The translations under genes were made by a program, and so were the position numbers. Shown in pieces: positions 3,131 to 62,900 of a stretch of 64,000 nucleotides of DNA (positions within the stretch are counted from its first letter, which is position 1; the number at the start of each line of letters is the position of its first letter). Below the pieces are notes generated by a model that had not been told where the DNA came from, ran no database searches, and saw only the letters and a program-made list of their open reading frames with translations. The DNA comes from Kiritimatiellia bacterium (GTDB lineage Bacteria; Verrucomicrobiota; Kiritimatiellia; RFP12; DVOR01), in the NCBI GenBank assembly GCA_017531445.1, contig JAFXKZ010000002.1:9286-73285 (forward strand), written 5' to 3'.

Positions 3131-3134
3131 GGAA

Positions 3135-4439: not shown

Positions 4440-4458
4440 GGGGTTTCCGTAGATGCAA

Positions 4459-6678: not shown

Positions 6679-6859
6679 TACCATAACAGTATAGCAAATA
6701 CCTTCATGTGCGTGAGAGAAGAAAGGCGATTCCGGAGATTTTTGTATTGCCCATTGCATCTGTCATTTCGTATGTGTAATGGCGACCATTCTTGAAGGTT
6801 CGCAACAGCAGGGAGCGTTTCAGGCGGGTAAAGAGACCCGTGCGGCGAGGGGGCGGCGC

Positions 6860-6941
6860 AACATCGCCGATACTGCTGCGTGATATCGGCGAAATTGCGC
6901 TTGAATATCGCCGATGTTGCAGGGGTAATGTCGCCGATGTT
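6860..6941. repeat. array A of the phased 15-bp palindrome AACATCG-N-CGATGTT (4 units)
   Basis: AACATCGCCGATACT (centre 6867), GATATCGGCGAAATT (6889), AATATCGCCGATGTT (6911), AATGTCGCCGATGTT (6934). Spacing is 22/22/23 bp. Located in a divergent intergenic region. Confidence 0.8.
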
Positions 6942-7217
6942 GTTTGGAACTTTTCGCGGCGAAACGCCAGACAGGAGGGAAACCATGGTTTTGATCGGAG
7001 CTGTCTGTCCGGAGGGGGTGGCGGCAAATACGGGATGAAACGCGTCAGGTGTAACTGCGGGGCGCGCAGACACGTAAAATTATTTTGAAAGAAATGGGAA
7101 ATAGGGTTGAAGCATCTATTTTTCTTTGTTAAACTGGTGCTGTTGTGATGAACAATGACGTTTTTGCATTGCTTGTTTGAAGCATGGATTGACGAATAAC
7201 GGATGGAGGTTTGAGTT

Positions 7218-8420: not shown

Positions 8421-8452
8421 GTATTGACTCCTCCATCCGCAACATTCCCTGT

Positions 8453-8490
8453 GCGAACGCCCCGTTATGAAGGCGTTCGCGCTTTATTTT
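8453..8490 (+). terminator. rho-independent terminator of the DksA-like gene
   Basis: GCGAACGCC / GGCGTTCGC stem (8453-8461 / 8472-8480) followed by GCTTTATTTT. Confidence 0.7.
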
Positions 8491-8571
8491 AATTGCTTAA
8501 GAAGGTAATCATTCAGGTTGCAATTAGAGGGGATACGTGCAGAAGAACCATCTGGATAACAATAACAAAGG

Positions 8572-8675
8572 GGTGGAAAGCGGCCTCAAAAACGGTAAAA
8601 AAATAACCATTGTGTGTTGGAACTGGCCGCGATGGAAGGTGGGAAGCGGTCGCAAAAAACGGTAAAAAAACAACC
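8572..8675 (+). repeat. two imperfect ~37-bp direct repeats
   Basis: GGTGGAAAGCGGCCTCAAAAACGGTAAAAAAATAACC (8572-8608) versus GGTGGGAAGCGGTCGCAAAAAACGGTAAAAAAACAACC (8638-8675). Confidence 0.7.
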
Positions 8676-8892
8676 GGAATCATGTGAAAAGGACTTGTTT
8701 TAATCACGAGATGAGATTTTTTTTGCTGTTGGGCATGAAACGTCTGTTGATGTCACTTGCTGTCCGTGCGTGGCAATTGAAAAGGGGGAGGGACGCTTTT
8801 ACGGTTGGGCAGTAGCGTCACAATTCAAGGGAACTTTGGGCTGACAAGGGGGAAAGATATTTCGTTTTCGATGCTTAAATAGGTAATTTGAG

Positions 8893-8922
8893 TTGTCTAA
8901 CTATAGACGCGAGTGCTATACT
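8893..8922 (+). promoter_or_regulatory. candidate sigma70-type promoter of fba
   Basis: TTGTCT (8893-8898), 18-nt spacer, TATACT (8917-8922), about 40 nt upstream of ATG 8961. Confidence 0.35.
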
Positions 8923-8960
8923 TTAATCATACTTTTAACCATTGAAAGGAGTGATCAATC

Positions 8961-9917
8961 ATGATCGTCACAACGAAGGAACTCTTCAAGCACGCCTACG
9001 GCAAATATGCCATTGGTGCTTACAATATCAACAACATGGAGCAGTGCATGGGCCTCTTCCGTGGTTGCATTGAGAGCAAGGCTCCGTTCATTATTCAGAT
9101 TTCCAAGGGTGCGCGCGGCTATACCGATAAGCTGATGTTGGAAAATGTGATTCGTGCAGCTGATAAAATTTTCCCCGAAGCCGTCTTTGCTGTTCACTTG
9201 GATCATGGTGATGAAGAATCCTGCATTGACTGCATCAACTCCGGGTTTTACAGCTCGGTGATGATCGATGCCTCCTCCAAGCCTTTTGAAGAAAACGCCG
9301 CTATCACAAAGAAAATCGTTGAGTTGGCTCATGCTAAGGGGCTTGTGGTCGAAGCAGAACTCGGCAAGCTCGGCGGCGTGGAAGAGCACGTGGCTGTGGA
9401 TGAAAAGGATGCGTGTCTTACCAATCCTGAAGACGTGAAACGCTTTGTGGAAGCTACCGGCTGCGACTCTCTTGCGTGTGCAATCGGTACTTCGCACGGT
9501 GCATTCAAGTTCTCCGGCAATCAGGGGCTGCGCTTTGATGTGCTTTCCGATATTCAGAAGAAGGCTCCCGGATTCCCGTTGGTAATGCACGGATCGTCTT
9601 CCGTTCCGCAAGACGAAGTCGCCCGTATCAATGCTTCCGGCGGTAAGCTGGATGGTGCAAAGGGTGTGGATGACAATCAATTCAAGCGTGCTGCTGAATT
9701 GGGCGTTACCAAGATCAATATCGACACAGACGGTCGCTTGGTGTGGTGCCGTGTGCACCGCGAATACTTCCGCGATCACCCGGAAGGTTTTGACCTTCGC
9801 CCCATCGGTAAGATCTTCATGGAAGAATATGCCAAATTCATCGCCGCAAAGAACGAAAAGCTCGGCTCTGCCGGACAGCTTGATTCCGTGCGTGAATTCT
9901 GCAAAGCGAATGCTTAA
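8961..9917 (+). CDS. fba: fructose-bisphosphate aldolase, class II
   Basis: VHLDHGDEE and AIGTSHGAFKF motifs. AGGAG RBS at 8947-8951. Confidence 0.92.
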   Translation: MIVTTKELFKHAYGKYAIGAYNINNMEQCMGLFRGCIESKAPFIIQISKGARGYTDKLMLENVIRAADKIFPEAVFAVHLDHGDEESCIDCINSGFYSSVMIDASSKPFEENAAITKKIVELAHAKGLVVEAELGKLGGVEEHVAVDEKDACLTNPEDVKRFVEATGCDSLACAIGTSHGAFKFSGNQGLRFDVLSDIQKKAPGFPLVMHGSSSVPQDEVARINASGGKLDGAKGVDDNQFKRAAELGVTKINIDTDGRLVWCRVHREYFRDHPEGFDLRPIGKIFMEEYAKFIAAKNEKLGSAGQLDSVREFCKANA

Positions 9918-9932
9918 GTAAAAACAATCTGC

Positions 9933-9972
9933 GGCGGTGTCTGAATCTTCAGACGCCGCCGGTCGTATTTTT
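9933..9972 (+). terminator. hairpin plus T-run between fba and the PFOR gene (terminator or attenuator)
   Basis: GGCGGTGTCTGA / TCAGACGCCGCC form a 12-bp stem with one G-U pair and loop ATCT, followed by GGTCGTATTTTT. Confidence 0.45.
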
Positions 9973-9996
9973 AATCAACCAAGAGAGAGAACGATT

Positions 9997-12900
9997 ATGG
10001 CAAAGTACATTATGTGCGATGGCAACGAAGCAACAGCACGCGTTGCATTTGCATGTTCCGAAGTCGCAGCCATTTATCCCATTACGCCGTCGTCTCCGAT
10101 GGCGGAATTCGCCGATGAATGGGCTGCACACAAGCAGACCAACATTTGGGGAACGATTCCTCAGATTGTTGAACTCCAGTCCGAAGCCGGTGCAGCCGGT
10201 GCAGTGCATGGCGCATTGACGACAGGTTCGCTCACCACCACCTTTACGGCATCACAGGGTTTGCTCCTGATGATTCCGAATATGTATAAGATTGCAGGCG
10301 AATTGACTCCTGCGGTATTCCATGTTACGGCACGTGCGCTTGCAATGCAAGGGTTGTCAATCTTCGGCGACCATGGCGACATTATGGCTTGCCGTCAGAC
10401 CGGTTTTGCATTCCTCGGCTCGGCTTCCGTGCAAGAATGCGGCGACATGGCGTTGATTGCACATGCCTCCACCCTTGAAGCAAAAATCCCGTTCGTACAC
10501 TTCTTTGACGGATTCCGTACTTCACACGAAGTGCAGAAGATTGAAGAAATCCCACAAGATGTTGTCCGGGCAATGATTGATGAAGATAAGGTGAATGAGT
10601 TCCGCGCACGCGGTCTCAATCCCGAAGCTCCAACAATGCGCGGCACCGCACAGAACCCTGATGTTTACTTCCAAGGGCGTGAGACGGTGAACAAATACTA
10701 CGAAGCTGTGCCTGCGATTGTTCAGAAAAACATGGACAAACTCGCGGAGCTTACAGGTCGTCGCTATCACCTCTTTGATTATGTCGGTGCGGAAGATGCC
10801 GAGCGTGTTATTGTCATTATGGGCTCTGGTGCTGAAACTGTTCAGGAAACGGTTGAAGAACTCAATGCAGAAGGTGCAAAGGTTGGCCTCGTCAAAGTGC
10901 GTCTCTATCGTCCTTTTGATGTCAAGGCGTTTGCTGCTGCTCTGCCCAAGACCGTGAAACAGATTACGGTGCTCGACCGTACGAAGGAACCCGGCTCTGT
11001 AGGTGAACCGCTTTACACCGATGTACGCACAGCTATTGGTGATGCTATGCAGAATGGGGATCTTGAAATCAAGTATCCGCGCACCTATGGCGGCCGTTAT
11101 GGTTTAGGTTCCAAGGAGTTCACCCCGGCGATGGTGAAGGGTGTTTTTGATAACATGGCAGCGGATAAACCGAAGAATCACTTCGCTGTCGGTATCAATG
11201 ACGATGTTACGGGGGCTTGTATTGAGATTCCTGCATACTTGCTTAAGGATTCCGGTTGCACCGAATGTATGTTCTATGGGTTGGGGTCCGATGGTACAGT
11301 CGGTGCAAACAAGAACAGCATCAAGGTGATTGGTAACAACACTGACAACTACGCACAGGGCTACTTTGTGTATGACTCGAAGAAGGCTGGCGGTCTTACT
11401 GTTTCGCATCTTCGGTTTGGCCCTTCGCCTATTCGCAGCCCCTATCTCTGCACGAAAGCGGACTTCATTGCGTGTCACAACTTCTCCTTCCTTGAGAAGT
11501 ATGATATGCTCGCAGCAGCCAAGCCCGGGGCGACGTTCCTCTTGCAATCGGAGTATGATGCCGCAACCGTTTGGGAACATATCCCGGATGAAGTGGCTCA
11601 GGTGATTATTGACAAGAAGCTGAAGTTCTATGTGGTAAATGCGGTCAAGGTGGCTCAAGGCTTAGGACTTGGCGGCCGCACGAATACCATTATGCAGACG
11701 GCATTCTTTGTTATCTCTGGTATTATTCCTGCCGAGAAGGCGATTGAGCTCCTCAAGGCCGCAGCCAAAAAGGCTTATGGTAAGAAGGGCGATGACGTCG
11801 TAAAGTTGAACTGGGATGCAATTGACGCAGCGAAGGATGCGATTGAGGAAGTCGTGGTTCCTTCGGCACCGTCGGGCAAGCTCGTCAAGCCTGCAACTGT
11901 CGTTGAAAGTGCACCTGACTTCGTGAAGAATGTCACTGCCAAGATGATGCGCCAGGAAGGCGATGAACTGCCAGTTTCCGCGATTCCGGATGATGGCACA
12001 TGGCCGACTGCGACAACGCAGTATGAAAAGCGCAATATTGCCGTGAAGATTCCTGAATGGAATAATGCTACATGTATTCAGTGCTTGAAGTGTTCTGCTG
12101 TTTGTCCGCATGCGGCTATCCGTGCAAAGATTGTGGATGAAGCGGCTGTCGCCGGTGCGCCTGAGACCTTTAAGACTGCGGATGGCAAGCCTCCGTTCAA
12201 GGGAAAGAAGTTCACGCTTCAGGTGGCAGTGGAGGATTGCACAGGGTGTGGTCTTTGCACAACGGTGTGCCCTGAATTGCCGAATGTCGGCAAGTCTCTC
12301 AATATGGTGCGCTATGATCAGGATAAGCTCCGCAAGCCCGGCGAAGCGAATTGGAATTACTTCCTCTCGCTCCCTGAGACGGATCTTACGGGCGTTCCAT
12401 TGAATGCCAAGACCTCTCAGCTCCGCCGTCCGCTCTTTGAGTTCTCCGGTGCTTGTGCCGGTTGTGGTGAAACACCGTACGTGAAGATGCTTACGCAGCT
12501 CTTTGGCGATCACCTTTGCATCGCGAATGCTACGGGGTGCTCTTCCATCTATGGCGGTAACCTCCCGACCACGCCTTATTGCAAAAATGCAGATGGCAAG
12601 GGGCCGGCTTGGGCAAACTCCCTCTTCGAGGATAATGCAGAATTCGGCTTGGGCATGGTGATTACCCGTGATAAGCAGAAGGCATTTGCCAAGGAGTTGG
12701 CAGAGAAGATTATCGCTGCTGAAGGCCCGTCTGCAGAATTCAAAGCTCTTCTTCAAGAGACGCTTGCTGCCACGGAAACGCAGAAGTCGGATGAAGACAT
12801 CAAGGCTCAGCGTGACCGCGTGGCGAAGATTAAGGCCACTGCGGCAACTTGTGAATGTGCAACGTGCAAGAAACTTGCAACGGTAGCAGACTTCCTGGTT

Positions 12901-49330: not shown

Positions 49331-50083
49331 TTAGAAGAGAATGAGCGTTTTCAACGGATCGAATGCAGCTTCAATGCGATCTTTTTCATTGGAAGAAAGC
49401 GGGCAATTCGCCAGGTTTAATACGCGAAGTGATTGCCACCCGGTGAGATTTTCGGGCAGATGAGTGATTTTTGTATTACTGAGATCAAGCTCTTCCAGTC
49501 CGCATCCGAGGTCGGGAGCGACCGTTTCAAGCGGGTTGCCTGCAAGGGTAAGGTGGCGCAAGGCTTTGGGTTTTGACGCAAATGTGCGCAACAGATTGTC
49601 GGCAAGATAGAGCCGCTCAATAGTTTCGGGAAGTGGAGGAAGATGTGTGAGACGATTGTGATTCAAGCGCAGCCAACGAAGTGATGTGGACGAGAGATCG
49701 GGCAACTGGGCGAGTCGATTCCGGTCAAGATTCAAATAGGTGAGCCGATGCCATTTTCCGGCCTCTTGCGGCAGGGACATCAACTGATTGTCGGATAACC
49801 AAAGGTGTTTGAGGTGTCCGGGGATGAGATCGCCGGGCAGTAGCATCAGGTTGTTGGCAGAGAGATTGAGTGCTTCCAGAGTTTCGGGAAAATGCAACGC
49901 ATAGACCCGATCTGCGCCTACGGCTCGCAAGTGTAACGCACGGACCGACTGGGTAATGGCTGGAATGGGCGTTGTACGACCTTCAAGCATGAGTGTTTCG
50001 GCATGGACACAACCAAATACCCATACAATTAAGGCAATTTTTAAGAGCGAATCTTTCAATCCCATTGGATGATTTCTCCGCAT
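49331..50083 (-). CDS. secreted leucine-rich repeat protein
   Basis: Signal peptide followed by about 8 LxxLxLxxNxLxxLP repeats. Its 5' end overlaps the birA-fusion gene. Confidence 0.8.
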   Translation of the reverse strand: MRRNHPMGLKDSLLKIALIVWVFGCVHAETLMLEGRTTPIPAITQSVRALHLRAVGADRVYALHFPETLEALNLSANNLMLLPGDLIPGHLKHLWLSDNQLMSLPQEAGKWHRLTYLNLDRNRLAQLPDLSSTSLRWLRLNHNRLTHLPPLPETIERLYLADNLLRTFASKPKALRHLTLAGNPLETVAPDLGCGLEELDLSNTKITHLPENLTGWQSLRVLNLANCPLSSNEKDRIEAAFDPLKTLILF

Positions 50084-51192
50084 ACGATAGGGGTAATCGT
50101 GCCGTCTTTGAGTTCTAAAAGAAGGGCACCGTCTTCCCGTATGCCCCGGGCGATACCGGAGGTTGGCGTATCAGAAAGTTTGACGGTGATTGGAAGATCA
50201 CGCTTGCAATCGCAGGCGGCGAGTTCTTCCCGCAGTGCTTTCAACCCTTGTTTCAGCCAACGGGCATACAGTGCTTCAAATTGTTTGAGTATTTTGGCAA
50301 GCAGGACAAGGCGATCAATTTCGCCGGAGATCCGGGTGGCACGATAGGCTACGGCCTCCGGCACTTCGCCGGTGTTGAGCCCGACGCCGATGATGATACC
50401 TTCAATTCCCTGCGCGGAGGTGTGCGCTTCGCAGAGAATCCCACAGACCTTGCGCTCGCCGATAAGCACATCGTTTGGCCATTTCAAGCCGGCGTTGTTC
50501 CCCATTTCCCGTAATACAAGCGTTACCGCCAAGCCTGCCACGAGAGGGGAAGTAATGGCGATTTCGGGCGGTAATTGGGGACGGATCAACAACGAGAAGA
50601 GCAATCCTTGCCCGGGTTCCGAGAGCCAATTGCGTCCCAATCGCCCACGGCCTGCAGTTTGCACTTCGGAAACAACAAGTGTGCCTTCCGGCGCGTTCGC
50701 TTCCGCTAAACGGAGCAAGAGGTCGTTGGTGCTGGTACAGGAGGCGTGAAAATGGGAGAATCTCCCAAAGCAATCGGTTTGCAAGTAAGAGCCGAATGCT
50801 TTTTCACGTAAATAGTTGAGTAATGGAAGATCTGCTTCTGCGAAATCCAACTTCCATAGTTGATCCGGAGCACACCAACATTGGTCAATGTGTTCGTGTA
50901 ACGTAGGTGCGGCTTTGTTGGTTTGAACGCAGATAAAGCCATGGAGTGTGAGCGAGAATTCCGGATAGGCGTGTTCAACGCAAGGCGCATCGGCCACAGT
51001 TTCCACAGCGATGCCAAGTTCTTCTTTGATTTCGCGGACAACCGCTTGTGCCGGTGTCTCGCCTTGTTCGATTTTTCCTCCCGGAAATTCCCATTTGAAT
51101 GCCGTTGATTGGAACTTGGAGGCTCCGCGCTTTACACAAAAGACCTCACCTGCATTGTTGAAAATCAGTGCTGCCGCTACATGAAGATGCAT
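50056..51192 (-). CDS. birA: Nudix hydrolase (MutT-like) fused to biotin--[acetyl-CoA-carboxylase] ligase
   Basis: Nudix box GGKIEQGETPAQAVVREIKEELG in the N-terminal ~130 aa, followed by BirA motifs QTAGRGRLGRNW and KWPNDV and the C-terminal beta domain. Confidence 0.85.
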   Translation of the reverse strand: MHLHVAAALIFNNAGEVFCVKRGASKFQSTAFKWEFPGGKIEQGETPAQAVVREIKEELGIAVETVADAPCVEHAYPEFSLTLHGFICVQTNKAAPTLHEHIDQCWCAPDQLWKLDFAEADLPLLNYLREKAFGSYLQTDCFGRFSHFHASCTSTNDLLLRLAEANAPEGTLVVSEVQTAGRGRLGRNWLSEPGQGLLFSLLIRPQLPPEIAITSPLVAGLAVTLVLREMGNNAGLKWPNDVLIGERKVCGILCEAHTSAQGIEGIIIGVGLNTGEVPEAVAYRATRISGEIDRLVLLAKILKQFEALYARWLKQGLKALREELAACDCKRDLPITVKLSDTPTSGIARGIREDGALLLELKDGTITPIVCGEIIQWD

Positions 51193-52974: not shown

Positions 52975-54870
52975 TCAAAGTGAAAGAATGTAAATTTCAA
53001 GATCGCTCAGTTCCTGTTCGGTTAAGTCCAAAGTTACTCCGTGATATTGCCCTTCGGGATTCCAAGTGGTGAGCACGTCACGAATAGTTTTTGCACGGCC
53101 ATCATAAAGGTAGGGGGCCGTTCTCCAGACTTCTTTCAATGTGGGAACGTCAAATTTCTGTCCTTTTTCGTCTCGCGTCCCCAAGCCGATGTCATACAAA
53201 GGGGCTTCCGAGCCATCGTTGGGGTTTGCCGAAGCCGTGAAGTGAAGTTCGGGCTTATGGCAACGCGCACAGTCTGCTTTATCTGTCCGTTCAAAGATTT
53301 CTTTCCCGCGAGCAATAGCTGCTGCATTTTCCTCGCGTGCCCAAGGTGAAGGTTGCGCTTTCATGTTCATTACATAAGCATCAATGCATTGGGTGTCTTC
53401 TTCGCTGACGGCACAAAATTGAATATGACGGAATCCTGCACGATTACAATGCTTCATATCTTTGCGAATGCCCGTAATCATTGTTGGCGGTGTGACACCG
53501 CTTAGATAGAGCGTCTTACTTTGTTTCGGATTTCCAATGCCGTCATTCAACAAATCCCAGTTCAGCCCGTCAACAATTCCATCCGGATGGCACGAGGCGC
53601 AGCTCTGCCATTGCTGGAAGCACTTGGTGCCGTCATTGAAGAGCATTTCGCCGCGCAATTCCGGATTAGCCTTCAGATCTGCCAGTGCATTTCCATTGAG
53701 AGGCGTTACTTTCGGGCGGATTTGGCGGCGTTCTTTGAATGGGATTTCAACTAATGCATCTGCATAATGACAGACGAGATAAGCGCGATCATTGGTTGCC
53801 ACGATGCCGCGCGGTCCATCGGCTTCAAAGGTAAAGCGACGTCGAATGCCGGTAAGGAATGAAAGATCGTTATGAACTTCCTCTGCAGAGAAAGTGACTT
53901 CGGTGACTTTCTTTCCCGCTGCAGCATCTTCCAATCGGCGATGCATCGCCGCACGATCAATCACACTCACTTCGCGTGTGCCGGCGTGTGTTACAAGGAT
54001 CTGCTCGCCATTCGGTGTAACAGTTACGCCCCATGGATTTGCTGCACCCAGATCAATGTCATCCAAAAGAACGGTGTTGATGTAGGCTCCTGTAGTGCCA
54101 TCGAAGACGGAGAGTGCTGCGGTATTCATCCATCCGCGCTCCAATTGTGTTGTGGGCAATTGATAACGCGCCTGCGTATGGGTAAGATAGATGTGCGCAC
54201 CATCGGGAGAAGCAGCGACACCCCGCACGCCGGTTGAACCATCCGGCAGGTGGATGTGGGCCTTGATGGCAAAGGTCTCTGTCTCAATAACCGTAACTTT
54301 TGCAGCCACGTGTCCGGTTGGTTCGGTGGTGTCATCAGGAAGCATATTGATGACAAAGAGCAACTTCCCATCTTTACCGAGTGCACAGCCATGCGTTTCG
54401 CGGATACATTTGGCTGTATTAAGCAATGTTAATGATTTTGCATCGTATTGCTGCACATTGGCATCAAAGCGGTTGCAAAGGTAAACATAACGCCCATCTG
54501 TCGAAACGATGGGAGCCATCGCTCCGTTCCCTGTTACGACAGAACGTCCGTCAGAACAGAAAAGTCTGCCTTCATTTCCGTCTTCTGCGGTGTAGTAAAT
54601 CGTTCCGTCAGGTGCAACCGCAGCCCCGGTTACCGGAAGTGAAACGCTGTCTTGAAACAACCCAAAGAAGCCTCCCATACGCTTAATCGCAGGAAACGAA
54701 CGCAGAAGAGTGCCATCAAGCGAACGCTCCGAAACGCATCCGGAACGTTTCTCTGCGATAATCAATCGATCTGCATTTGGGGAGAGAGAAATTGTTTCAG
54801 GTGAAAGATACGTCGCTTTTAAGAGCGCGTTCATACTGAAAAAACAGGCAAGCAAGAGTGTACGTTTCAT
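52975..54870 (-). CDS. secreted beta-propeller domain fused to a di-haem cytochrome c peroxidase/MauG-like domain
   Basis: Signal peptide from ATG 54870 (MKRTLLLACFF). The N-terminal ~400 aa carry repeated propeller-like blades. Two CxxCH sites are present (CASCHPDG, CARCHKPE). Confidence 0.8.
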   Translation of the reverse strand: MKRTLLLACFFSMNALLKATYLSPETISLSPNADRLIIAEKRSGCVSERSLDGTLLRSFPAIKRMGGFFGLFQDSVSLPVTGAAVAPDGTIYYTAEDGNEGRLFCSDGRSVVTGNGAMAPIVSTDGRYVYLCNRFDANVQQYDAKSLTLLNTAKCIRETHGCALGKDGKLLFVINMLPDDTTEPTGHVAAKVTVIETETFAIKAHIHLPDGSTGVRGVAASPDGAHIYLTHTQARYQLPTTQLERGWMNTAALSVFDGTTGAYINTVLLDDIDLGAANPWGVTVTPNGEQILVTHAGTREVSVIDRAAMHRRLEDAAAGKKVTEVTFSAEEVHNDLSFLTGIRRRFTFEADGPRGIVATNDRAYLVCHYADALVEIPFKERRQIRPKVTPLNGNALADLKANPELRGEMLFNDGTKCFQQWQSCASCHPDGIVDGLNWDLLNDGIGNPKQSKTLYLSGVTPPTMITGIRKDMKHCNRAGFRHIQFCAVSEEDTQCIDAYVMNMKAQPSPWAREENAAAIARGKEIFERTDKADCARCHKPELHFTASANPNDGSEAPLYDIGLGTRDEKGQKFDVPTLKEVWRTAPYLYDGRAKTIRDVLTTWNPEGQYHGVTLDLTEQELSDLEIYILSL

Positions 54871-55050
54871 TGTCTTGACTCCAAAATAAACCACGTTCAG
54901 TATAACATGTTTCGTGTGTTGCAAAGAGGCAAAATGCAAAATCAAACGCATTGCGTCCTGCAGTAACCAAAACATCACCTTCTTTAGTATAGCACATCAT
55001 TCACTTGAGGATGGGAAGAGGATTGATTTTGGAAAGAAAATCTTTTTTGC

Positions 55051-55077
55051 TTGACTTTATGCGGGGGGGGGTATCAT
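55051..55077 (+). promoter_or_regulatory. candidate promoter of the GTPase cassette with a G9 homopolymer in the spacer
   Basis: TTGACT (55051-55056), 15-nt spacer TTATGC+G9 (G run 55063-55071), TATCAT (55072-55077). Confidence 0.4.
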
Positions 55078-55150
55078 GTTATTAGTGAATACTACAAGTG
55101 GAGTTTGCATACGGCTCTACTTATAAGTCAATGAAGGATGGTTGAATTTT

Positions 55151-56395
55151 ATGGGTAATATTACGTTTTTGGGCGTTGAAGGTTCGGGTAAAACCGTTTT
55201 GACGATGGCATTGGTGAATGCTTTTAAGGCGCATGAACATGAAGGGTGGTTCTTACGTCCTGAAACGCGTGGTGCTTTTCGCTTTTTGGAACAGGACCCT
55301 TCGGAATTAAAAGAAGGAATGCTTCCGCACCAAACAACTGCCTTGCGCCAATTGGCTTGGAGTGTGGTGAAGGATGGCGAGCATCAGCAGACCTTGGATA
55401 TTTTGGACTATCCTGGTGAAGTCTATCGTCTTGCTTTCTTAAATGCGGAAGATGAAAATGATCCAGACGAATTTCGTGCGCGAGTCCAAGCACATCAAGA
55501 AGAAATTAAGGGATTCTTAGGACACCTGATTCTGTCTGAACATATCTTTGTTCTCTTCAATCTCTCTGATGCGAAGGATTTAGGCTCAAATGATAAAAAT
55601 CTGGATGCCGTATGGGTGACCAATGCGTGCTTAGATTATCTCCATCGATTGCCCCACAAACCACGTATTACCCTGCTTTTGACGCAGATTGATAGGTACG
55701 TGGATTTAGAACAGTGCGAATTTGACCCAAAAGTCTATGTCTCACATCACCTTCCCTTAATCGCCCACAACTTCCCTAATTTAGATGTTTATGCCGTTGC
55801 TGCTTTAGGTGCTGCAGACTCAACATTTGGCATTAATTCTATTCTTGTTCGTTGTTTGTTTAGCACCCCCGTTGTACAAGACGCAATCAATCATGTGAAA
55901 GAATGTCGTCGCAATTTAGAATACGTATTTGATTTAAGCGTTGAGGATGAAGCATTTTGTAGTCAAGTGATGAGTGCAGTTGAAAATCTCTCGTTTGATG
56001 CTCCTCATTGGAAACAGAAATTACCGTGGTTCATCAACGTAAAAGATTTAATTAATTCAACTGGGATGTTAAGCGCGGAGGATTGTCAAGAATGTAAAAC
56101 AATTGTGGATAAATATCGCGCAGTGCTACAAGAGTGTGATGGTAACACTATTGACTATTCATATTTAGCTTCTTTAATGTGTGAGATGGAGGCTAAAAGT
56201 GAAGAGGCTAGCCTGCTAGTGCAGAAGATGTATTCACAATTTCATGTAGCGGCATTAAAAGCTTGTCGGGCGGATCTTGTTATTCAACAAGCAGCTAAAA
56301 TTGAAAAGTGTAAATATTACGCTTCACGAAGCTTTTTAATCGTTTCCGTAATCATTTTACTCGCAACGTGTATCGTTGTTTTTGTTTGTGCGTGA
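55151..56395 (+). CDS. tail-anchored P-loop GTPase (Ras-like/TRAFAC motifs), family unassigned
   Basis: G1 GVEGSGKT, G3 LDILDYPGE, G4-like LLLTQID, a helical Cys-containing middle region, and a C-terminal TM helix FLIVSVIILLATCIVVFV. ATG 55151 follows AAGGA (the ORF track starts at TTG 55142). Confidence 0.7.
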   Translation: MGNITFLGVEGSGKTVLTMALVNAFKAHEHEGWFLRPETRGAFRFLEQDPSELKEGMLPHQTTALRQLAWSVVKDGEHQQTLDILDYPGEVYRLAFLNAEDENDPDEFRARVQAHQEEIKGFLGHLILSEHIFVLFNLSDAKDLGSNDKNLDAVWVTNACLDYLHRLPHKPRITLLLTQIDRYVDLEQCEFDPKVYVSHHLPLIAHNFPNLDVYAVAALGAADSTFGINSILVRCLFSTPVVQDAINHVKECRRNLEYVFDLSVEDEAFCSQVMSAVENLSFDAPHWKQKLPWFINVKDLINSTGMLSAEDCQECKTIVDKYRAVLQECDGNTIDYSYLASLMCEMEAKSEEASLLVQKMYSQFHVAALKACRADLVIQQAAKIEKCKYYASRSFLIVSVIILLATCIVVFVCA

Positions 56396-56405
56396 GGAAT
56401 TAATC

Positions 56406-57164
56406 GTGAAGAATCGCTATTGTAATAGTATCGCAATCCTTTGCTTGTTGGCGAGTGGATATATCGCGTTAGGTGTTTTCCCGAGGCTGCGAGAATATCG
56501 TATTGAAAAGGGATGTGTTGCGTATGTGTATGGAGATTACAAAACTGCTCTAAAATATTGTATTCCAGCAGCGAAACGTGGTCACGTGAAATCGATGGCC
56601 ATTGTGGGTGAATGTTATCGTAATGGTTATGAGGTTGAACAGTCTTATTCAGAGGCGGTGAAGTGGTATCGTAAGGCCGCAGAGCAAGGGCATGCATTGG
56701 CGCAGCTTAATCTTGGCGGGTGCTATGCAGTGGGCTACGGTGTTTCGCAGTCTTGGACAGAGGCAGTGAAGTGGTATCGCAAGTCTGCCGAGCAAGGAGA
56801 TGCGGTAGCGCAGTTTAATCTTGGAGTGTGTTATGCCAAAGGTGATGGTGTTTCGCAGTCTTGGACAGAGGCCGTGAAGTGGCTTCGCAAGTCTGCCGAG
56901 CAAGGAAATGCTGATGCGCAGCTTAATCTTGGTTGGTGTTATGCAGAGGGAAAAGGTGTTTCGCGGTCTCGGACAGAGGCTGTGAAGTGGTATCGCAAGT
57001 CTGCCGAGCAAGGAAATGCATTGGCGCAGTTTAATCTTGGCCGGTGTTATGCCTATGGTAATGGAGTTCGGCAGTCTTGGACAGAGGCTGTGAAGTGGTT
57101 TCGCAAGGCCGCCGAGCAAGGCGATCCGGATGCAAAGGAAGCATTGAAACGATTAGGATACTAA
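56406..57164 (+). CDS. N-terminally membrane-anchored Sel1-repeat (SLR/TPR-like) protein
   Basis: TM helix SIAILCLLASGYIALGVF followed by six 36-aa Sel1 repeats (AVKWYRKSAEQGNAxAQxNLGxCYAxGxGV). GTG 56406 lies 7 nt after a GAGGA that overlaps the GTPase stop. Confidence 0.85.
   Translation: MKNRYCNSIAILCLLASGYIALGVFPRLREYRIEKGCVAYVYGDYKTALKYCIPAAKRGHVKSMAIVGECYRNGYEVEQSYSEAVKWYRKAAEQGHALAQLNLGGCYAVGYGVSQSWTEAVKWYRKSAEQGDAVAQFNLGVCYAKGDGVSQSWTEAVKWLRKSAEQGNADAQLNLGWCYAEGKGVSRSRTEAVKWYRKSAEQGNALAQFNLGRCYAYGNGVRQSWTEAVKWFRKAAEQGDPDAKEALKRLGY
56652..57125 (+). repeat. tandem 108-bp DNA repeats encoding the Sel1 units
   Basis: Units start at 56652, 56760, 56868, 56976 and 57084 (GAGGCnGTGAAGTGG...). 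High nucleotide identity between units. Confidence 0.85.
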
Positions 57165-57274
57165 TGTCTAACGATTCATTTTTGAGTGATTATCTTTCGA
57201 AGGGGGATGCGGGGCATTCTTAAGGACGGGGTGTACGTCCGAACACATCTTCAGGGCATTCTTGTCAGTCTGTG

Positions 57275-57679
57275 ATGCGGGATACGGCGCAACCGATGGT
57301 GTGGGTGGAGGAGGTTGAGCCGTTACCTTCTTCAAATTTGATGGATGAGTCGTCAGAGATAGAGGAGGCGTTTAGTCGTCCTATTGTGATAGAGGGTGAA
57401 CGTGCGGCGTGTCAGGAGGCGATTCGAAATTTGTCCTTTTGGGCACTCTTTTGTCGACCATGGTCAATACATTGGAAGTGGGTCTTTTGCTTGGGGGCAA
57501 TTGTTTGCATTTTGACTGGTTTATTTGCTTCAAGTGATTTCATTCCGCATGAGATTTACGCCTTCTTGATGGCATTAACGGTGCCGATGACGATGGTGAC
57601 CTTCTTCTGTGAACTGGACGTTACGCGTGCAGTTTCGGGTGGACGGCGGCGATGGTGGCCTTTTTCGGTGGTCTTTTGA
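57275..57679 (+). CDS. N-terminal part of a PrsW-like protease (acidic cytoplasmic head plus TM helices), ending at a frame change
   Basis: ORF 57272..57679. TM segments WVFCLGAIVCILTGLF and YAFLMALTVPMTMVTFF. Terminates 28 nt inside the next ORF in a different frame. Confidence 0.5.
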   Translation: MRDTAQPMVWVEEVEPLPSSNLMDESSEIEEAFSRPIVIEGERAACQEAIRNLSFWALFCRPWSIHWKWVFCLGAIVCILTGLFASSDFIPHEIYAFLMALTVPMTMVTFFCELDVTRAVSGGRRRWWPFSVVF

Positions 57680-58203
57680 CGGTGTCAATCGCTGCGGTTT
57701 TGAATATCGGATTAGAGATAGAGGCGTGGATGGCGGGATTGACGGAAGAGCCGATTAAAGCCATCGCCTTGCTCATCTTAGCGATGTTTCCGCGTCAATT
57801 CCCTGGGATTTTGTCGGGAGTTGCTTTAGGAGTGAGTATCGGCGCAGGCTTTGCAGTGCTTGAAACGTTTGATTATGCGTATGCTTTTGGTGAAGCAGGG
57901 CGGCCGGATACGTTTGTTTTGTTATTGCGCGGTGTTCTCTCACCTTTGATGCATATGGCATGGACGGGGGCATTGGGTGGTGCGATGTGGGCTGCACGCG
58001 GACCACATCGAAGCGGATGGGCGGCACTCTCGTCTTGGCAGTTTTGGGCGGTGTTTGGTGCCATGATTCTTTTCCATTGTATTTGGAATGCGGTGGGCTT
58101 AATCAATTATTTGGCGATTGCCTTATGGAGTATTATCTTCCACTACCTTAAGAAAGGTTTCGCAGAGGTCTCGAATTGGGAATTTGAAGGACGGATTGTG
58201 TAA
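57652..58203 (+). CDS. PrsW-family intramembrane metalloprotease catalytic core
   Basis: EEPIK (EExxK), GFAVLET, HMAWTG and FHCIWN motifs embedded in TM helices, in the same order as in B. subtilis PrsW (EESLK, GFATLEN, SSHAL, LLHGSYD). Confidence 0.7.
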   Translation: MVAFFGGLLTVSIAAVLNIGLEIEAWMAGLTEEPIKAIALLILAMFPRQFPGILSGVALGVSIGAGFAVLETFDYAYAFGEAGRPDTFVLLLRGVLSPLMHMAWTGALGGAMWAARGPHRSGWAALSSWQFWAVFGAMILFHCIWNAVGLINYLAIALWSIIFHYLKKGFAEVSNWEFEGRIV

Positions 58204-58204
58204 C

Positions 58205-59197
58205 ATGATGACATTACCTTTAGCGATTTACACAGCAAATCATGGGTTGGCATGGACTTACCCAAAGCAAGAGATTGGTTTTGCAGAATTGGATTCCTGT
58301 CGTACGGCATTGGCACCTTTGCCTGACTTTGATATGGGTGAGGCGGGTTATGAAGGTGTTTGGGTGACGGCAGAGCGCGTCTTTGCGGTGGTTTGTCAAA
58401 GTGCGCCGAAATGGGGTTTTAGAGGACGTGATGCGACTTATCTTGCGGTCACCTGGATGACGCGTGAAGAGGCGAAGGGGGTTGATTTTGAAGTCCTGCT
58501 TTCTCATCCTGCATTGCGTACCCCCACGAAGAATCCGCCATCGTTTATTGAGGTTCATCAAACGCCATTTAGAAGTTGTCCAATTCAAGAATTGTCAACT
58601 GTGCTCCCCAGTTTTCAGTCAGTTGATGCTTTGATTTCTGCTTTGCCAATGAATCAAACGGCAAAGATTAAACGGATATTGAATATGTCTTCGGTTACCT
58701 GTCGGTATGAAACGATTGGATCGACCGGGTTCCCTCAACAAACGGTATCTCCGGTGTTTTCGCTTCCGGAGCAACCTCCGGAGCCTTCTGTGCCGCGGGA
58801 GGTGTCAAATCCAACGAGGCTTACCCCGGCACCATCGTTGATATCGATGATCCTTTTGATTTTCACACTCATTCTTTTAGGTTTTTCGCTTTTATTGAAT
58901 CTCTATTTGGGATGGGAGTGGCTCAATCAACGGCCGGAATTGAAACGAAACGTTCAGGAAACGATTGAAATGCAAGTGCCGACCGGACAATTGAAACAGA
59001 CAATTTACAGTGTGAAAGAAGCGTTATTTCAAAAGAAGAAGCATACAACAACCAATGAGATCAATACGATTGGTCAACCTCTCTTTGAGACGTCGCTCAA
59101 CGAAGAAGGCTTCCCGGCCGCTCTTTCAGTAACGAATAGCGCAACTATTATTAAAGCAGTTGATATTACAGCAGAAACAACAGAAGAAAAGAGGTAA
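58205..59197 (+). CDS. orphan single-pass membrane protein
   Basis: ATG 58205 lies 1 nt after the PrsW stop. About 210-aa N-terminal globular region, a Pro-rich linker, TM helix LISMILLIFTLILLGFSLLLNLYLGW, and a ~80-aa polar tail. No motif recognised. Confidence 0.6.
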   Translation: MMTLPLAIYTANHGLAWTYPKQEIGFAELDSCRTALAPLPDFDMGEAGYEGVWVTAERVFAVVCQSAPKWGFRGRDATYLAVTWMTREEAKGVDFEVLLSHPALRTPTKNPPSFIEVHQTPFRSCPIQELSTVLPSFQSVDALISALPMNQTAKIKRILNMSSVTCRYETIGSTGFPQQTVSPVFSLPEQPPEPSVPREVSNPTRLTPAPSLISMILLIFTLILLGFSLLLNLYLGWEWLNQRPELKRNVQETIEMQVPTGQLKQTIYSVKEALFQKKKHTTTNEINTIGQPLFETSLNEEGFPAALSVTNSATIIKAVDITAETTEEKR

Positions 59198-59200
59198 ATC

Positions 59201-59710
59201 ATGAACGAAGCCGAAAAATTCCTGCAAGAACACCTTGCGAAAGCGCAACGACCCCAACCCTCTGCGCCACAAGTTCAGACGACACCATTCGCATCAGGGG
59301 CGCAAAATGACAGTGCCGCTGTCGTAGGTAAACAACAGATGGTGTCAATGGGAGAAGCATTCAAACGCTTTTGGGTGAATTGGAGTCTGAATGGACGTTC
59401 ATCGCGTTCCGAATTTTGGTTTGCAGTATTAGCAAATTTTATTTTAGGTTTTCCAATTGGAATTGGAATAGCCGTAATTGGAGTGATTGTTCCTGCACTC
59501 GCAGAAGTGGCAGATATTCTTTTTTCGTTGTTGATATTATGGCCGGGTATTGCTATCGTGGTACGGCGATTACATGATATTGGGAAGTCTGGGTGGTGGT
59601 ATTGGATTTCCCTTATCCCATTTGTAGGATGTTTAATACTTTTGATTTTTATGTGTCGTGCTAGCGAGCCGTATGAAAATCGATATGGGCCAGTGCCGAA
59701 TGTGCGGTGA
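59201..59710 (+). CDS. DUF805 (YhaH/YhaI-like) inner-membrane protein
   Basis: GRSSRSEFW and VRRLHDIGKSGWWYWISLIP signature. ATG lies 3 nt after the preceding stop, with an AAGAGG RBS. Confidence 0.85.
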   Translation: MNEAEKFLQEHLAKAQRPQPSAPQVQTTPFASGAQNDSAAVVGKQQMVSMGEAFKRFWVNWSLNGRSSRSEFWFAVLANFILGFPIGIGIAVIGVIVPALAEVADILFSLLILWPGIAIVVRRLHDIGKSGWWYWISLIPFVGCLILLIFMCRASEPYENRYGPVPNVR

Positions 59711-59835
59711 GGGAAGAACCCTTTTCTTCAAAAGCCTTTAGTGGCGTAACCTTGCCCCTGAAAGCGGGCACTGCCGGAGCTTTGTAGAGTGGAGTCCGTT
59801 AATATTGACAAATGTGCCCGGCGAGATGCGGTTTT

Positions 59836-59917
59836 AAGATGGGCGAAATCGGGAATGCGTTTCGCCGATGTTGAAACCGCACATGGGCGATGTCGCCGTT
59901 AATGTTTCGCCGAAAGT
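59836..59917. repeat. array F of the phased palindrome (4 units plus degenerate flank)
   Basis: Unit centres at 59843, 59865, 59887 and 59910: AAGATGGGCGAAATC, CGTTTCGCCGATGTT, CACATGGGCGATGTC, TGTTTCGCCGAAAGT. Located in a convergent intergenic region. Confidence 0.75.
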
Positions 59918-59962
59918 GAAAACGAATGGCCGCAAGCATCATTGCTACGGCCATTCGTTTCA
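59915..59962 (-). terminator. rho-independent terminator of purL (possibly bidirectional)
   Basis: 12-bp stem AACGAATGGCCG / CGGCCATTCGTT (59921-59932 / 59948-59959). The minus strand continues TTTTCAC. Confidence 0.7.
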
Positions 59963-59982
59963 ATAAGAGGGAATGAAATACT

Positions 59983-62900
59983 TTAACGCGCCTGGGTGGC
60001 AAAGGCGTATGCGTTCTTGAAGAGTTTCATCCAGGGGCCTTCCTCGCCTCCGGCAAAGGTGCCGTCGTCATAAGAAAGCTGAATGGAGCGGAAGCTGCGT
60101 TCCGGATGCGGCATCAGGATTGTGGCGCGGCCGTCTTCCGAGGTAAAGCCGCAGAGTCCACCCTTGGAACCATTCGGATTCCATGGATAGATTTCGGTGG
60201 GGTTGCCTTTGCCATCAACGAAACGGAGGGCGCGGGTCGCTTTTTCCGCATCCGTCTCGCATTCAAATGCCACGCGCCCTTCGCCATGTGCAACGGCGAT
60301 GGGGAGACGACTGCCTGTCATACCTTTGAGAAGGACGCTGGGCGAATCCAGCACTTCAAGTGTGCAGTAACGGCCTTCAAACTGTTCGGAATTATTCCGT
60401 ACAAAGCGTGGCCAGTGTTGGGCTCCGGGGATAATATCTTTGAGCTGCGAAACCATCTGACAACCGTTGCAAACGCCAAGTGTGAAGGTGTCGGGGCGTT
60501 CAAAGAAGCGGCGGAACATTTCTTTGAGATCTGCATTAAAAAGAATGCTGCGCGCCCAACCTGATCCTGCGCCGAGTACGTCACCATATGAGAAGCCGCC
60601 GCAAGCGACCAAACCCTTGAAGTCGTCAAGATTGACACGCCCTTCAAGCAAATCAGTCATATGCACATCGATTGCTTCAAAGCCGGCAAGTGTAAAGGCG
60701 GCAGCCATTTCAATATGACCGTTAACGCCCTCCTCGCGCAAAATAGCCATCTTCGGAGCCGGAGTCGTTGCTTTGGGGGTATCTTCCGCATTCAAGGGAT
60801 AAGTGACCTTGAAGTTCAAGCCGGGGTCGTCGGTGAGACCGGCAACGTCATATTCCATCTTTGCACAATCAGGATTGTCGCGGAGTGCTTGCATATGGTA
60901 CGTGGTTTCCGACCACGCCTTACGGATGTCGGCAAGCGATTCGTCAATGGCCGGTTCGTCATTGACTGTAATCTGGAGTACGGGTTCTTCTTGTGTCAAG
61001 CCGATCCACGCACCATTGACGCCATGCTTTGTTAAAATCGCTTCCACGTCCGCAGCATTTTCCTCCAGCACTTGAAGCACTGCGCCGAGCTCTTCATTGT
61101 AAAGAGCAGAAAGCGCATCCTTGCCGGTAAGATTAACCGCTACGCCTTTGCCGCCGGCCATCGCCATCTCGGCAAGCGTAACGGCAACGCCACCGTCAGA
61201 ACGGTCGTGATAGGCCGCAACAAGACCACGTTCAACCATTTCCTGCATTGCTTCATAGAATGCGCGAACGCTTTCTGCGCTTTCCATATCCGGCACAGTG
61301 TCACCTATCTGGTTGTAAACTTGAGCCAAAGCAGATGCACCGAGACGTTCCTTTCCATTGCCGAGGTCTACCAGCATCAGGCGGGAAAAACCGGGTTTCA
61401 AATCGGGCGTGACGTCTTTGCGGGCATCCGTTACAGTGGCGAAAGACGAAACAATCAATGAGAGAGGCCCCACTTGTTTGTGCTCTTTCCCCTGCGAATC
61501 TTTCCAAACCGTACGCATGGAGAGTGAATCTTTGCCTACCGGAATGCAGACGCCCAAGCGGGGGCAAATGTCCATGCCGACGGTTTCCACTGTGTCAAAG
61601 AGACGCGCGTCTTCGCCCTCTTCGCCGCAAGCCGCCATCCAGTTGGCAGAGAGTTTAATCGTGCCGATAGGGCCGATCGGAGCCGAGGCAAGCTGGAGAA
61701 TTGCTTCGCCCACAGCCATACGTCCGGAAGCCGGGGCATCAACGATTGCAATGGGGGTGCGCTCACCTGTTGCCATTACTTCGCCTGTTGTTGTCTGATA
61801 GCCCGTAACCGTGAGCGCGTGGTCGGCTACCGGAAGCTGATACTTGCCGCACATTTGGTCGCGGTGAACCATGCCCGTAATTGTGCGGTCGGTAATGGTA
61901 ACAAGGAACGTTTTATTGGCAACGGCAGGGAAACGCAGAATACGTTGGAGTGCCGCCGCAGGAGTAATGCCTTCCAAGTTTAATGACGTTGTGGGAAGCG
62001 TAATGTGTTTGACATCGCGCACCATGCGTGGCGGTTTTCCAAGCAAGGTTGAAATATCCATGTCAATGGGATTGTCGTCAAAGTGTTCATCATGGAGCAC
62101 CATGCGCCCATCATCACGCGTTTCACCAATAAATGCGACCGGGCAACGCTCGCGTTCGCAGAAGCTCTCAAACAAGACTTTGTCTTCTGCACGGATGGCA
62201 AGTACATAACGCTCTTGCGCTTCACAGCACCAGATTTCCATCGGGCTCATGGAGATTTCTTCATTATGCACCTTGCGGAGTTCAAAGTCTGCACCCGTGG
62301 CTTCAACCAACTCCGGACAGCCATTTGAGAGACCGCCGGCACCAATGTCATGCAAAGAAAGGATAGGATTGGACGAACCGAGTGCAACACACGCATCAAT
62401 TACACCCTGACAACGGCGTTGCATTTCAGCATTGCCGCGCTGTACGGAGTCGAAATCAAGCTTTGCTTCGTTGGTCCCGGAGGCCATGGAACTCGCCGCA
62501 CCGCCACCGAGCCCGATACGCATTGCAGGACCTCCGATTTGAACTACGAGCACGTGTGACGGGACCTCTTTCTTAAGCACTTGGTCGTGGCGGATATTAC
62601 CCATGCCGCCGGCGAGCATGATCGGTTTGTGGTATCCCCAATATTTGCCGCAAGCTTCTTCTTCAAGTGTGCGGAAGAAGCCGCAAAGTTGCGGACGACC
62701 GAATTCATTCCCGAACGCGGCTCCGCCGATAGGGCCTTCCATCATGATACTCAGTGCAGGAGAAAGACGTTCCGGACGCTCCGCATAATCCTTTTCCCAT
62801 GGTTGCAGAAAGCCGGGAATCCGCAGGTCGCTTACACAGAATCCGCAGATACCGGCCTTGGTACGCGAACCGATGCCGGTGGCACTCTCATCGCGGATTT

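Follow-up and report, generated by a model that had tools for sequence, protein, structure and literature searches.

Gene content of the locus

The locus described here occupies positions 55142-59710 on the (+) strand of a 64,000-nt stretch of a Kiritimatiellia bacterium genome (contig JAFXKZ010000002.1; hereafter the window, whose numbering is used for all coordinates unless a related locus is named). It begins with a gene for a 414-residue tail-anchored GTPase (55151-56395, stop codon included) and continues, in the same orientation, with genes for a Sel1-repeat protein, a PrsW-family intramembrane protease, a conserved partner protein with a longin-like N-terminal domain, and a DUF805 membrane protein. 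The window was compared with 39 related loci (L001-L039), giving 40 comparison sources in all, and the GTPase was followed in a close-family alignment and in a diverse alignment of 73 members.

Two start codons are available to the GTPase reading frame, TTG at 55142 (417 codons) and ATG at 55151 (414 codons); the latter is the likely start because all homologues begin MGN[IV]TFLGVEG. A word-indexed search returned 257 homologues (best expect value (E) 1e-279), and an exhaustive profile search returned 556 representative clusters at 50% identity, of which 347 reach E <= 1e-10. These numbers exclude a chance open reading frame (ORF), and 55151-56395 is a real gene. An AlphaFold2 model built on 45 homologues (pLDDT 90.7, pTM 0.81) places an alpha/beta domain at residues 1-236, helices at 240-345 and a single long helix at 351-413 that is hydrophobic at its end.

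A TRAFAC G domain with a variant G4 motif

Residues 1-236 (55151-55858) are predicted to form a G domain with a TRAFAC fold of the DO-GTPase/YcjX-like kind, as judged from Foldseek, Pfam and an hhalign alignment to YcjX. All 50 matches listed in the Foldseek comparison with solved structures were GTPases or GTPase-containing complexes (E 2e-4 to 6e-3), including EF-Tu, YcjX (6nz5 and 6nz4), eIF2-gamma, eEFSec, G-alpha, Rab/Ran/Arf/Rho, Rag/Gtr, Miro, the Roc domain of LRRK2, and the signal recognition particle (SRP) and its receptor (SR); no ABC, AAA or kinase fold was among them. The fold, the order of the motifs and the matches listed uphold the P-loop GTPase proposed in the initial annotation, whose best structural matches proved to be GTPases and not ABC or AAA proteins. 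The word "small", also used there, is a loose label for a G domain of about 236 residues with inserts.

The three motifs from which that proposal was made, GVEGSGKT, LDILDYPGE and LLLTQID, are present in the ORF translation, and together with a switch-I Thr and a G5 motif they lie at the secondary-structure positions expected of a G domain and are conserved. G1 or Walker A (GVEGSGKT, residues 8-15; 55172-55195) has Gly8, Gly13 and Lys14 invariant in the 73 diverse members. The candidate for switch I and G2 (P59-H-Q-T62-T63; 55325-55339) precedes the strand at residues 67-74, aligns with WPTPT of YcjX and has Pro59 and Thr62 at least 90% conserved; pLDDT is lower at residues 50-70. G3 or Walker B (LDILDYPGE, residues 83-91; 55397-55423) carries Glu90 directly after the Gly and follows the family form D[YF]xGE. 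The G4 variant (LLLTQID, residues 176-182; 55676-55696; family form [TS]QxD) lies at the end of strand beta5 (residues 172-178), and the G5-like AVAALGA (55796-55816; family consensus AVSALG) comes after strand beta6 (residues 212-215).

Asp86, Pro88, Gly89, Thr178 and Gln179 are invariant in the close family, in which conservation of the P-loop, Thr62, Glu90 and Asp181 is 90% or higher; in the diverse alignment Glu90 joins Gly8, Gly13 and Lys14 as invariant, and Thr62, Asp86, Gly89, Gln179 and Asp181 reach at least 90%. The signature common to 134 representatives is GVEGSGKT, D[YF]xGE and [TS]QxD. On these alignments the TQxD form of G4 is a family trait and no local oddity, and the retained Asp of G4 together with the G5 motif points to specificity for GTP.

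Relationship to DO-GTPases and YcjX

The protein is very probably a TRAFAC GTPase of the DO-GTPase/YcjX-like radiation with a membrane anchor. Pfam (cut-offs 27 bits for both DO-GTPase models and 25 bits for YcjX/DUF463) matched it to DO-GTPase2 at 21.5 bits (E 2e-4), to DO-GTPase1 at 19.2 bits (E 8e-4) and marginally to DUF463 (E 0.027). The two DO-GTPase models are also the commonest Pfam matches among 45 close relatives, with 19 matching DO-GTPase1 and 16 matching DO-GTPase2; among the 73 diverse members the counts are 28 for DO-GTPase2 (E <= 1e-4, best 1.9e-10) and 10 for DO-GTPase1. One homologue, P0300, passes the DO-GTPase gathering threshold at 36 bits. Some homologues, P0028 among them, are extended at the N-terminus by a zinc-ribbon-like CxxC...CxxC segment, a feature also known from DO-GTPases. 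The alignment to Escherichia coli YcjX brings G1, the WPxxT switch I and DYPGE into register (probability 85%, E 6e-6, 94 columns).

A conserved Walker-B Glu in a TRAFAC GTPase is a hallmark of DO-GTPases (PMC7159879), and Glu90, invariant throughout the diverse alignment, corresponds to it. A later paper counts the psp-linked GTPase of gammaproteobacteria among the DO-GTPases and gives it a role in membrane stress (PMC11237479). The present system cannot be called a full member, because the target misses the Pfam threshold and the GAP1 feature was not found; by its domain and gene arrangement the system appears to work like a DO-GTPase system.

The initial annotation had called the protein Ras-like, a label that does not survive comparison with sequence families: no Ras, Roc or Arf model of Pfam or NCBIfam matched the target at E <= 0.1, and the only GTPase families found were DO-GTPase1/2 and YcjX/DUF463. 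The motifs differ throughout the family, which has DYPGE and TQxD in place of DxxGQ and NKxD of Ras. The resemblance of LDILDYPGE to LDILDTAGQE of H-Ras, noted in that annotation, is that of a generic beta3-DxxG pattern, with an invariant Glu where Ras has Gln61. Other searches returned noise: P-loop or coiled-coil noise for the target and the family profile against PDB chain sequences, sub-threshold kinase or P-loop noise for the target in NCBIfam, and nothing above noise for dynamin, SRP54 and AIG1 in Pfam with the target and close members.

Membrane anchor and variable region

Behind the G domain lies a variable helical region (residues 237-393; 55859-56329), helical in the model and of low identity among paralogues, in keeping with a cassette that co-varies with the cognate Sel1 partner. 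The remainder of the protein is a C-terminal transmembrane (TM) helix or tail anchor (residues 394-414; 56330-56392). Its most hydrophobic 19-residue segment spans residues 395-413, one short of the C-terminus, with a mean Kyte-Doolittle hydropathy of 3.2; no second segment exceeds the hydropathy threshold, and the N-terminus is the G1 strand, with no signal sequence. By its sequence features the GTPase is a tail-anchored membrane protein, and insertion is predicted.

The C-terminal helix of the initial annotation is borne out by this peak and by the recurrence of a C-terminal or single TM in homologues; what that account missed is the larger architecture behind the tail anchor, in which a GTPase, a TM and an outside domain are joined and of which the anchor is a split version, here with the partner genes downstream. 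The helical region with several Cys that it described is likewise present, with helices in the model, and its Cys are not conserved beyond close relatives. The whole protein has 13 Cys, of which Cys160, in the G domain, is the only one invariant in the close family, and it is absent from the conserved columns of the diverse alignment. A metal-binding or redox Cys motif in the helical region was considered and rejected, those Cys varying beyond close relatives.

Architecture and distribution of the family

Related loci and representatives share a layout of an N-terminal G domain, a helical region and usually one TM, after which the protein either ends, as a tail anchor, or runs on for 100-980 residues. 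Among the 73 diverse members the fused outside parts are Sel1 repeats (14), FGE-sulfatase domains (11) and DnaJ-type Cys-rich segments (6); TPR or beta-helix domains also occur, as do ankyrin repeats in one case, the C-terminus of a GTPase paralogue at L033 8908-11005. Fused members carry Lys/Arg-rich segments upstream of the TM. The G domain would lie inside and the C-terminal domain outside, the former because GTP is cytoplasmic.

Copy number differs among loci: there is one GTPase gene here, with no further paralogue in the 64-kb window, and there are two or three in L002, L013 and L033-L038. Every related locus in a species-representative genome belongs to a metagenome-assembled genome (MAG). 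Most of these MAGs are labelled Kiritimatiellae/Kiritimatiellaeota or Lentisphaerae/Lentisphaeraceae, with Candidatus Spyradenecus among them; the remaining labels are unclassified uncultured bacteria and one bin assigned to Lachnospiraceae. Their named sources are animal gut or rumen. A 93%-identical orthologue of the GTPase occurs in a fully syntenic region, with the same housekeeping genes on either side.

The Sel1 neighbour and cassette behaviour

Immediately downstream of the GTPase gene lies a gene for a Sel1-repeat protein with an N-terminal signal anchor (56406-57164; ORF open from 56376, likely start GTG at 56406; five repeats, Pfam Sel1 E 1e-54). Its hydrophobic anchor reads MKNRY-CNSIAILCLLASGYIALGVF. 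A Sel1 gene is next after the GTPase in the window and in eight further loci (L001-L003, L007, L009, L010, L013 and L029), and in five others (L005, L006, L028, L030 and L031) Sel1 repeats are fused behind the single TM of the GTPase itself. Read against these fusions, the Sel1 gene of the window encodes the outside module of the GTPase, detached here as a protein of its own.

The most informative relative is L002, which has three GTPase-Sel1 pairs in tandem (2784-11290). Its paralogues 1 and 2 are 98.3% identical in the G domain and 20.7% in the C-region. The window protein compares with paralogues 1 and 2 in the same manner (G domain 94%, C-region 19-36%), and with paralogue 3, its positional orthologue, in another (G domain 78%, C-region 83%). 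Paralogues overall are 91-98% identical in their G domains and 19-36% in the variable helical region. The Sel1 anchor of the window is nearly identical to that of the partner of paralogue 3 but does not resemble the anchors that go with paralogues 1 and 2. Since the C-region and the Sel1 anchor match the same L002 paralogue, the stalk/TM cassette travels together with its Sel1 partner. The pattern implies that G domains are exchanged or homogenised among copies, presumably by gene conversion or cassette shuffling, and fits a model in which every GTPase tail is matched to one cognate Sel1 protein.

The Sel1 partner also varies in length among loci that are otherwise near-identical, with 262 residues in the window (56376-57164), 190 in L001 (11226-11798) and 506 in L002 (11271-12791). 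In L039, an independent assembly of the same strain, the contig breaks within the Sel1 repeats. The differences suggest either expansion and contraction of repeat number or assembly collapse.

A longin-like partner protein

The fourth gene of the block encodes a conserved 330-residue partner protein (58205-59197), characterised from its AlphaFold2 model, Foldseek and linkage by a hidden Markov model (HMM) of its first 172 residues. It comprises a longin-topology N-domain (residues 1-118), a second small domain to about residue 170, a Pro-rich linker and a variable tail, with a single TM at residues 212-230 (58838-58894). The N-terminal region is strongly conserved, with Arg33, Arg75, Arg87 and Arg157 and the WDFRGRDATYLAVTW block standing out, the four Arg being invariant.

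Of the 40 sources, 27 (the window plus 26 related loci) carry the partner gene beside GTPase genes according to the HMM, which makes it the most persistent genomic companion of the GTPase family. In one clade it is a 143-residue soluble protein encoded directly downstream of a GTPase of about 510-570 residues (L004, L015, L016, L019 and L022-L026), and in the distant L033-L038 it overlaps GTPase genes at start and stop codons (E 1e-10 to 7e-23). One partner protein, at L034 3348-4415, has a DnaJ-type CxxCxGxG tail.

The partner model reaches pLDDT of about 95 over residues 1-170, and its beta-beta-alpha-beta-beta-beta-alpha order is that of longin domains. Foldseek ranked TagF highest (9t0n and 6iz8; E 0.03, probability 0.97 and 0.80), followed by the longin domains of Nprl2/SEA-GATOR1, FLCN-FNIP, Lst4 and DENND10 (E 0.1-0.4, probability 0.2-0.8); GFP-like barrels had a probability of about 0.1. 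We found no description in the literature of a link between TagF and longin or DENN folds. Because these E-values are weak, the longin assignment is suggestive. A role as a GAP1 protein was considered and rejected, as Pfam gave no GAP1 match for the partner or its distant homologues and the remaining matches were TM or coiled-coil noise, including Sigma_reg_N over the TM. Longin and roadblock domains are well known as platforms for GTPases and as GTPase-activating proteins (GAPs), as in MglB-MglA and the Rag regulators (PMC3521125, PMC3747258), and for this reason the partner is proposed to regulate or read out the GTPase.

PrsW, DUF805 and flanking genes

Two membrane-protein genes accompany the GTPase set in the window, L001-L008 and L014. 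The first encodes a PrsW-family intramembrane protease (57272-58203, (+) strand; Pfam PrsW E 1e-21) confined to the close clade. In the window the loss of one nucleotide near 57640 (GGTTGG reduced to GGTGG, compared with the intact 346-residue L002 orthologue) breaks it into two overlapping ORFs; the L001 orthologue is likewise split, at another position. The split in the window may be a sequencing error or real decay. The second, the last gene of the co-oriented block, encodes a DUF805 membrane protein (59201-59710; Pfam E 2e-28) whose position is kept in L001-L008, L013 and L014, L013 having DUF805 without PrsW.

GC content is 0.45-0.47 over 54001-60000, the GTPase-to-DUF805 block, versus 0.50-0.54 in the flanking housekeeping regions. 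Divergent to the GTPase gene, on the (-) strand, lies a gene for a 667-residue beta-propeller and di-haem cytochrome c peroxidase/MauG-like protein (52975-54978), which matches NCBIfam hydrazine synthase beta/gamma at E 3e-25 and 88 bits, far below the cut-off of 1250. Further along the same strand are genes for a 378-residue fusion of a NUDIX hydrolase and a biotin-protein ligase (50056-51192; BPL_LplA_LipB and BPL_C by Pfam on the L001 orthologue) and, amid housekeeping genes, a 250-residue leucine-rich-repeat protein with an N-terminal hydrophobic segment (49331-50083).

A possible bipartite receptor GTPase

We propose that the GTPase is a membrane-tethered molecular switch, with the G domain and the variable helical stalk in the cytoplasm and the last 20 residues spanning the inner membrane. 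The Sel1 protein would be held by its N-terminal signal anchor with the repeats in the periplasm, where it could serve as a sensor or scaffold. Physically paired, the two would make up a bipartite single-pass receptor GTPase, with a sensor outside and a GTP/GDP switch inside, and would respond to a signal from the envelope or the environment. The cytoplasmic longin-like domain of the partner would bind the G domain as a GAP, a guanine-nucleotide exchange factor (GEF) or an effector platform, a role proposed by analogy with the longin and roadblock proteins that serve MglA, Rag and SR-beta. In Bacillus, PrsW makes the site-1 cut in a single-pass anti-sigma factor. In the close clade here the protease might, more speculatively, cleave the single-pass partner as an output step, as suggested by the N-in single-pass shape of the partner and by its position directly after PrsW.

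We hold the account of a membrane-tethered switch as the best explanation, at slightly better than even odds; its bipartite receptor-switch mechanism with a longin-like regulator we regard as tentative, with a chance approaching but not exceeding even. A wider generalisation strikes us as rather doubtful: a class of single-pass receptor GTPases in which a Sel1 or FGE-sulfatase sensor is wired through one TM to the G domain, a dedicated longin GAP or GEF controls the nucleotide cycle, and PrsW cleavage serves as output or reset in the clade of the window.

Several observations weigh against the mechanism or loosen parts of it. GTPase activity is predicted for the family from sequences and models, and the topology from the cytoplasmic location of GTP together with a modest positive-inside signal. 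The target scores below the cut-off of the DO-GTPase models (21.5 versus 27 bits). The partner gene is missing from the surroundings of the GTPase in four loci with full flanks (L009, L010, L030 and L031). The partner protein has weak structural matches (E at least 0.03, template-modelling scores of about 0.2-0.33 over full length), and no Pfam family, GAP1 models included, matched it or its 35 + 5 homologues up to the permissive limit of E <= 1. In the window PrsW carries a frameshift, and the linkage of PrsW and DUF805 is limited to the close clade. Between 54900 and 60050, promoter-like sites did not exceed their number in shuffled sequence, and terminator-like sites did so marginally (9 versus 5.4 +/- 2.4).

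Alternative explanations

A constant core with variable cassettes is compatible either with envelope or environment sensing, which we prefer, or with a role in conflict and defence. Under the latter, the locus would be a DO-GTPase anti-invader or self/non-self system as proposed by Kaur, Burroughs, Iyer and Aravind, with the GTPase-partner core setting a threshold and the diversifying modules binding invader molecules. The family link to DO-GTPases speaks for it, as do the GAP1-N2 systems of PVC phyla, with their TM-outside GTPases, TM partners and FGS effectors (PMC7159879). Tandem paralogues whose G domains are nearly the same while their cassettes diverge, the two to three GTPase paralogues per locus in L033-L038, the varying repeat number of the Sel1 partner, the FGS and Sel1 modules within the family, and the slightly lower GC over 54-60 kb are also what such a system might display. 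PADLOC, however, gave no convincing match, its single SLATT-like hit (E 0.0045) falling over the hydrophobic tail as a membrane-helix artefact; Pfam and NCBIfam recognised no toxic or enzymatic effector in the block, and no GAP1, GASH or FNIII component was detected. The block lies amid housekeeping genes, is syntenic in related genomes and has no annotated mobile-element genes within about 10 kb on each side. The conflict role of DO-GTPases is itself a computational prediction, and we consider this explanation unlikely while taking it seriously.

Other readings concern the GTPase by itself. Replacement of both the Asn and the Lys of NKxD (by Thr178 and Gln179) could mean that the G4 change alters specificity or abolishes activity, leaving an ATPase, an XTPase or a nucleotide-locked pseudo-GTPase that acts as a membrane scaffold. 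The base-specifying Asp181, the P-loop, Thr62, Asp86, Gly89 and Glu90 are nevertheless at least 90% conserved, the pattern expected of an active guanine-nucleotide enzyme under selection, and the related YcjX was crystallised with GDP and GDPCP according to the entry titles of 6nz4 and 6nz5, which makes this improbable. Still less credence goes to a Ras-superfamily small GTPase with an incidental tail anchor that acts like the Ras, Rab and Miro switches. Rab, Ran, Arf, Rho and Miro structures are among the Foldseek matches listed, and the beta3-DxxG block resembles that of Ras, but EF-Tu, YcjX, eIF2-gamma and G-alpha score the same or better, no Ras/Roc/Arf Pfam model matches, Glu stands for the catalytic Gln after DxxG and TQxD for NKxD throughout the family, and sequence profiles point to DO-GTPases and YcjX. 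A membrane-remodelling or protein-targeting GTPase, in the manner of dynamin-like proteins, SR-beta or Toc34, is equally hard to credit: it would account for a tail anchor such as those of Toc34, GIMAP and Miro, for the SRP-receptor complexes among the weaker Foldseek matches listed and for the long helical stalk of the model, but not for the lack of dynamin, SRP54 or AIG1 matches above noise, for outside modules that are ligand-binding or scaffold domains (Sel1, FGE-sulfatase and TPR), or for a lineage-specific paralogue expansion unlike core targeting machinery.

Significance

Bacterial transmembrane signalling is mostly framed in terms of kinases, chemoreceptors and anti-sigma factors. If the receptor-switch reading is right, a widespread family that couples outside repeat domains to a cytoplasmic GTPase would be an additional signalling device, operating on a principle other than that of histidine kinases, Ser/Thr kinases or anti-sigma factors. 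Its pairing with the partner would be a third, previously unrecognised prokaryotic longin/roadblock-GTPase pairing besides MglB-MglA, and the partner, if its longin nature is confirmed, would bear on the prokaryotic roots of eukaryotic longin-GTPase modules. The expansion of the family, with tandem arrays and swapped cassettes, in uncultured gut and rumen Kiritimatiellia and Lentisphaerota may shape host or phage sensing. We know of no biochemistry for the DO-GTPase group apart from the YcjX structures, and the [TS]QxD G4 and the Walker-B Glu would offer clear mutational handles for specificity and catalysis.

Comparison with known systems

Eukaryotes have tail-anchored GTPases of their own, namely Toc34, the GIMAPs and Miro, in which one C-terminal membrane helix likewise tethers a cytosolic G domain. 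Sequence and family comparison detected no specific relation to them, and the tail anchor here appears as the split variant of a protein in which GTPase, TM and outside domain are continuous.

For the partner, the nearest counterparts are longin/roadblock regulators (MglB for MglA; Nprl2 in GATOR1, FLCN-FNIP and Lst4 for Rag; SRX for SR-beta) and TagF of the type VI secretion system. Its N-domain has the order of strands and helices of longin domains, and its best, weak structural matches (E at least 0.03) are to TagF and then to longin domains of Rag/Arf GAP complexes. Its gene lies beside that of a presumptive GTPase, like mglB beside mglA (PMC3521125). It differs in being membrane-anchored in the clade of the window, in matching no sequence family and in having a GTPase that is not of the MglA, Arf or Rag type.

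YcjX (DUF463; E. coli b1321; 6NZ4/6NZ5) has G1, the WPxxT switch I and the DYPGE G3 in common with the target, ranks 4 and 20 among the Foldseek matches listed, and works with a membrane protein from the next gene, YcjF (DUF697); it has been assigned to the DO-GTPases and connected with membrane stress (PMC11237479). Unlike the target, it is soluble, has large helical inserts and can be aligned over only about 94 columns; no DUF697 partner was found by Pfam among the neighbours in the window, which sets the locus apart from YcjX-like systems.

The closest likeness is to DO-GTPases (PF19993 DO-GTPase2 and PF19975 DO-GTPase1; Kaur et al. 2020, eLife, PMC7159879), which share the TRAFAC G domain with a Walker-B Glu, the frequent paralogous copies per locus and the dedicated adjacent partner gene. 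GAP1-N2-type DO-GTPase systems, found in planctomycetes, verrucomicrobia and other phyla, contain GTPases with a C-terminal TM followed by outside domains, GAP1 partners with C-terminal TMs and, in some cases, FGS (FGE-sulfatase) effectors (Kaur et al., PMC7159879). In the arrangement of its domains and genes the present system has the same grammar. It departs from these systems in that no Pfam match to GAP1, GASH or FNIII was found in the neighbours, nor any in the 35 + 5 partner homologues at E <= 1, that the partner is shorter and of longin topology, that Sel1 repeats are the main outside module, and that the window holds one GTPase copy; linkage to PrsW and DUF805, names that do not occur in the DO-GTPase paper (PMC7159879), also differs. 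Relative to the described DO-GTPase systems, the new elements would be the use of Sel1 repeats, a different, short partner and, in the clade of the window, the addition of PrsW and DUF805.

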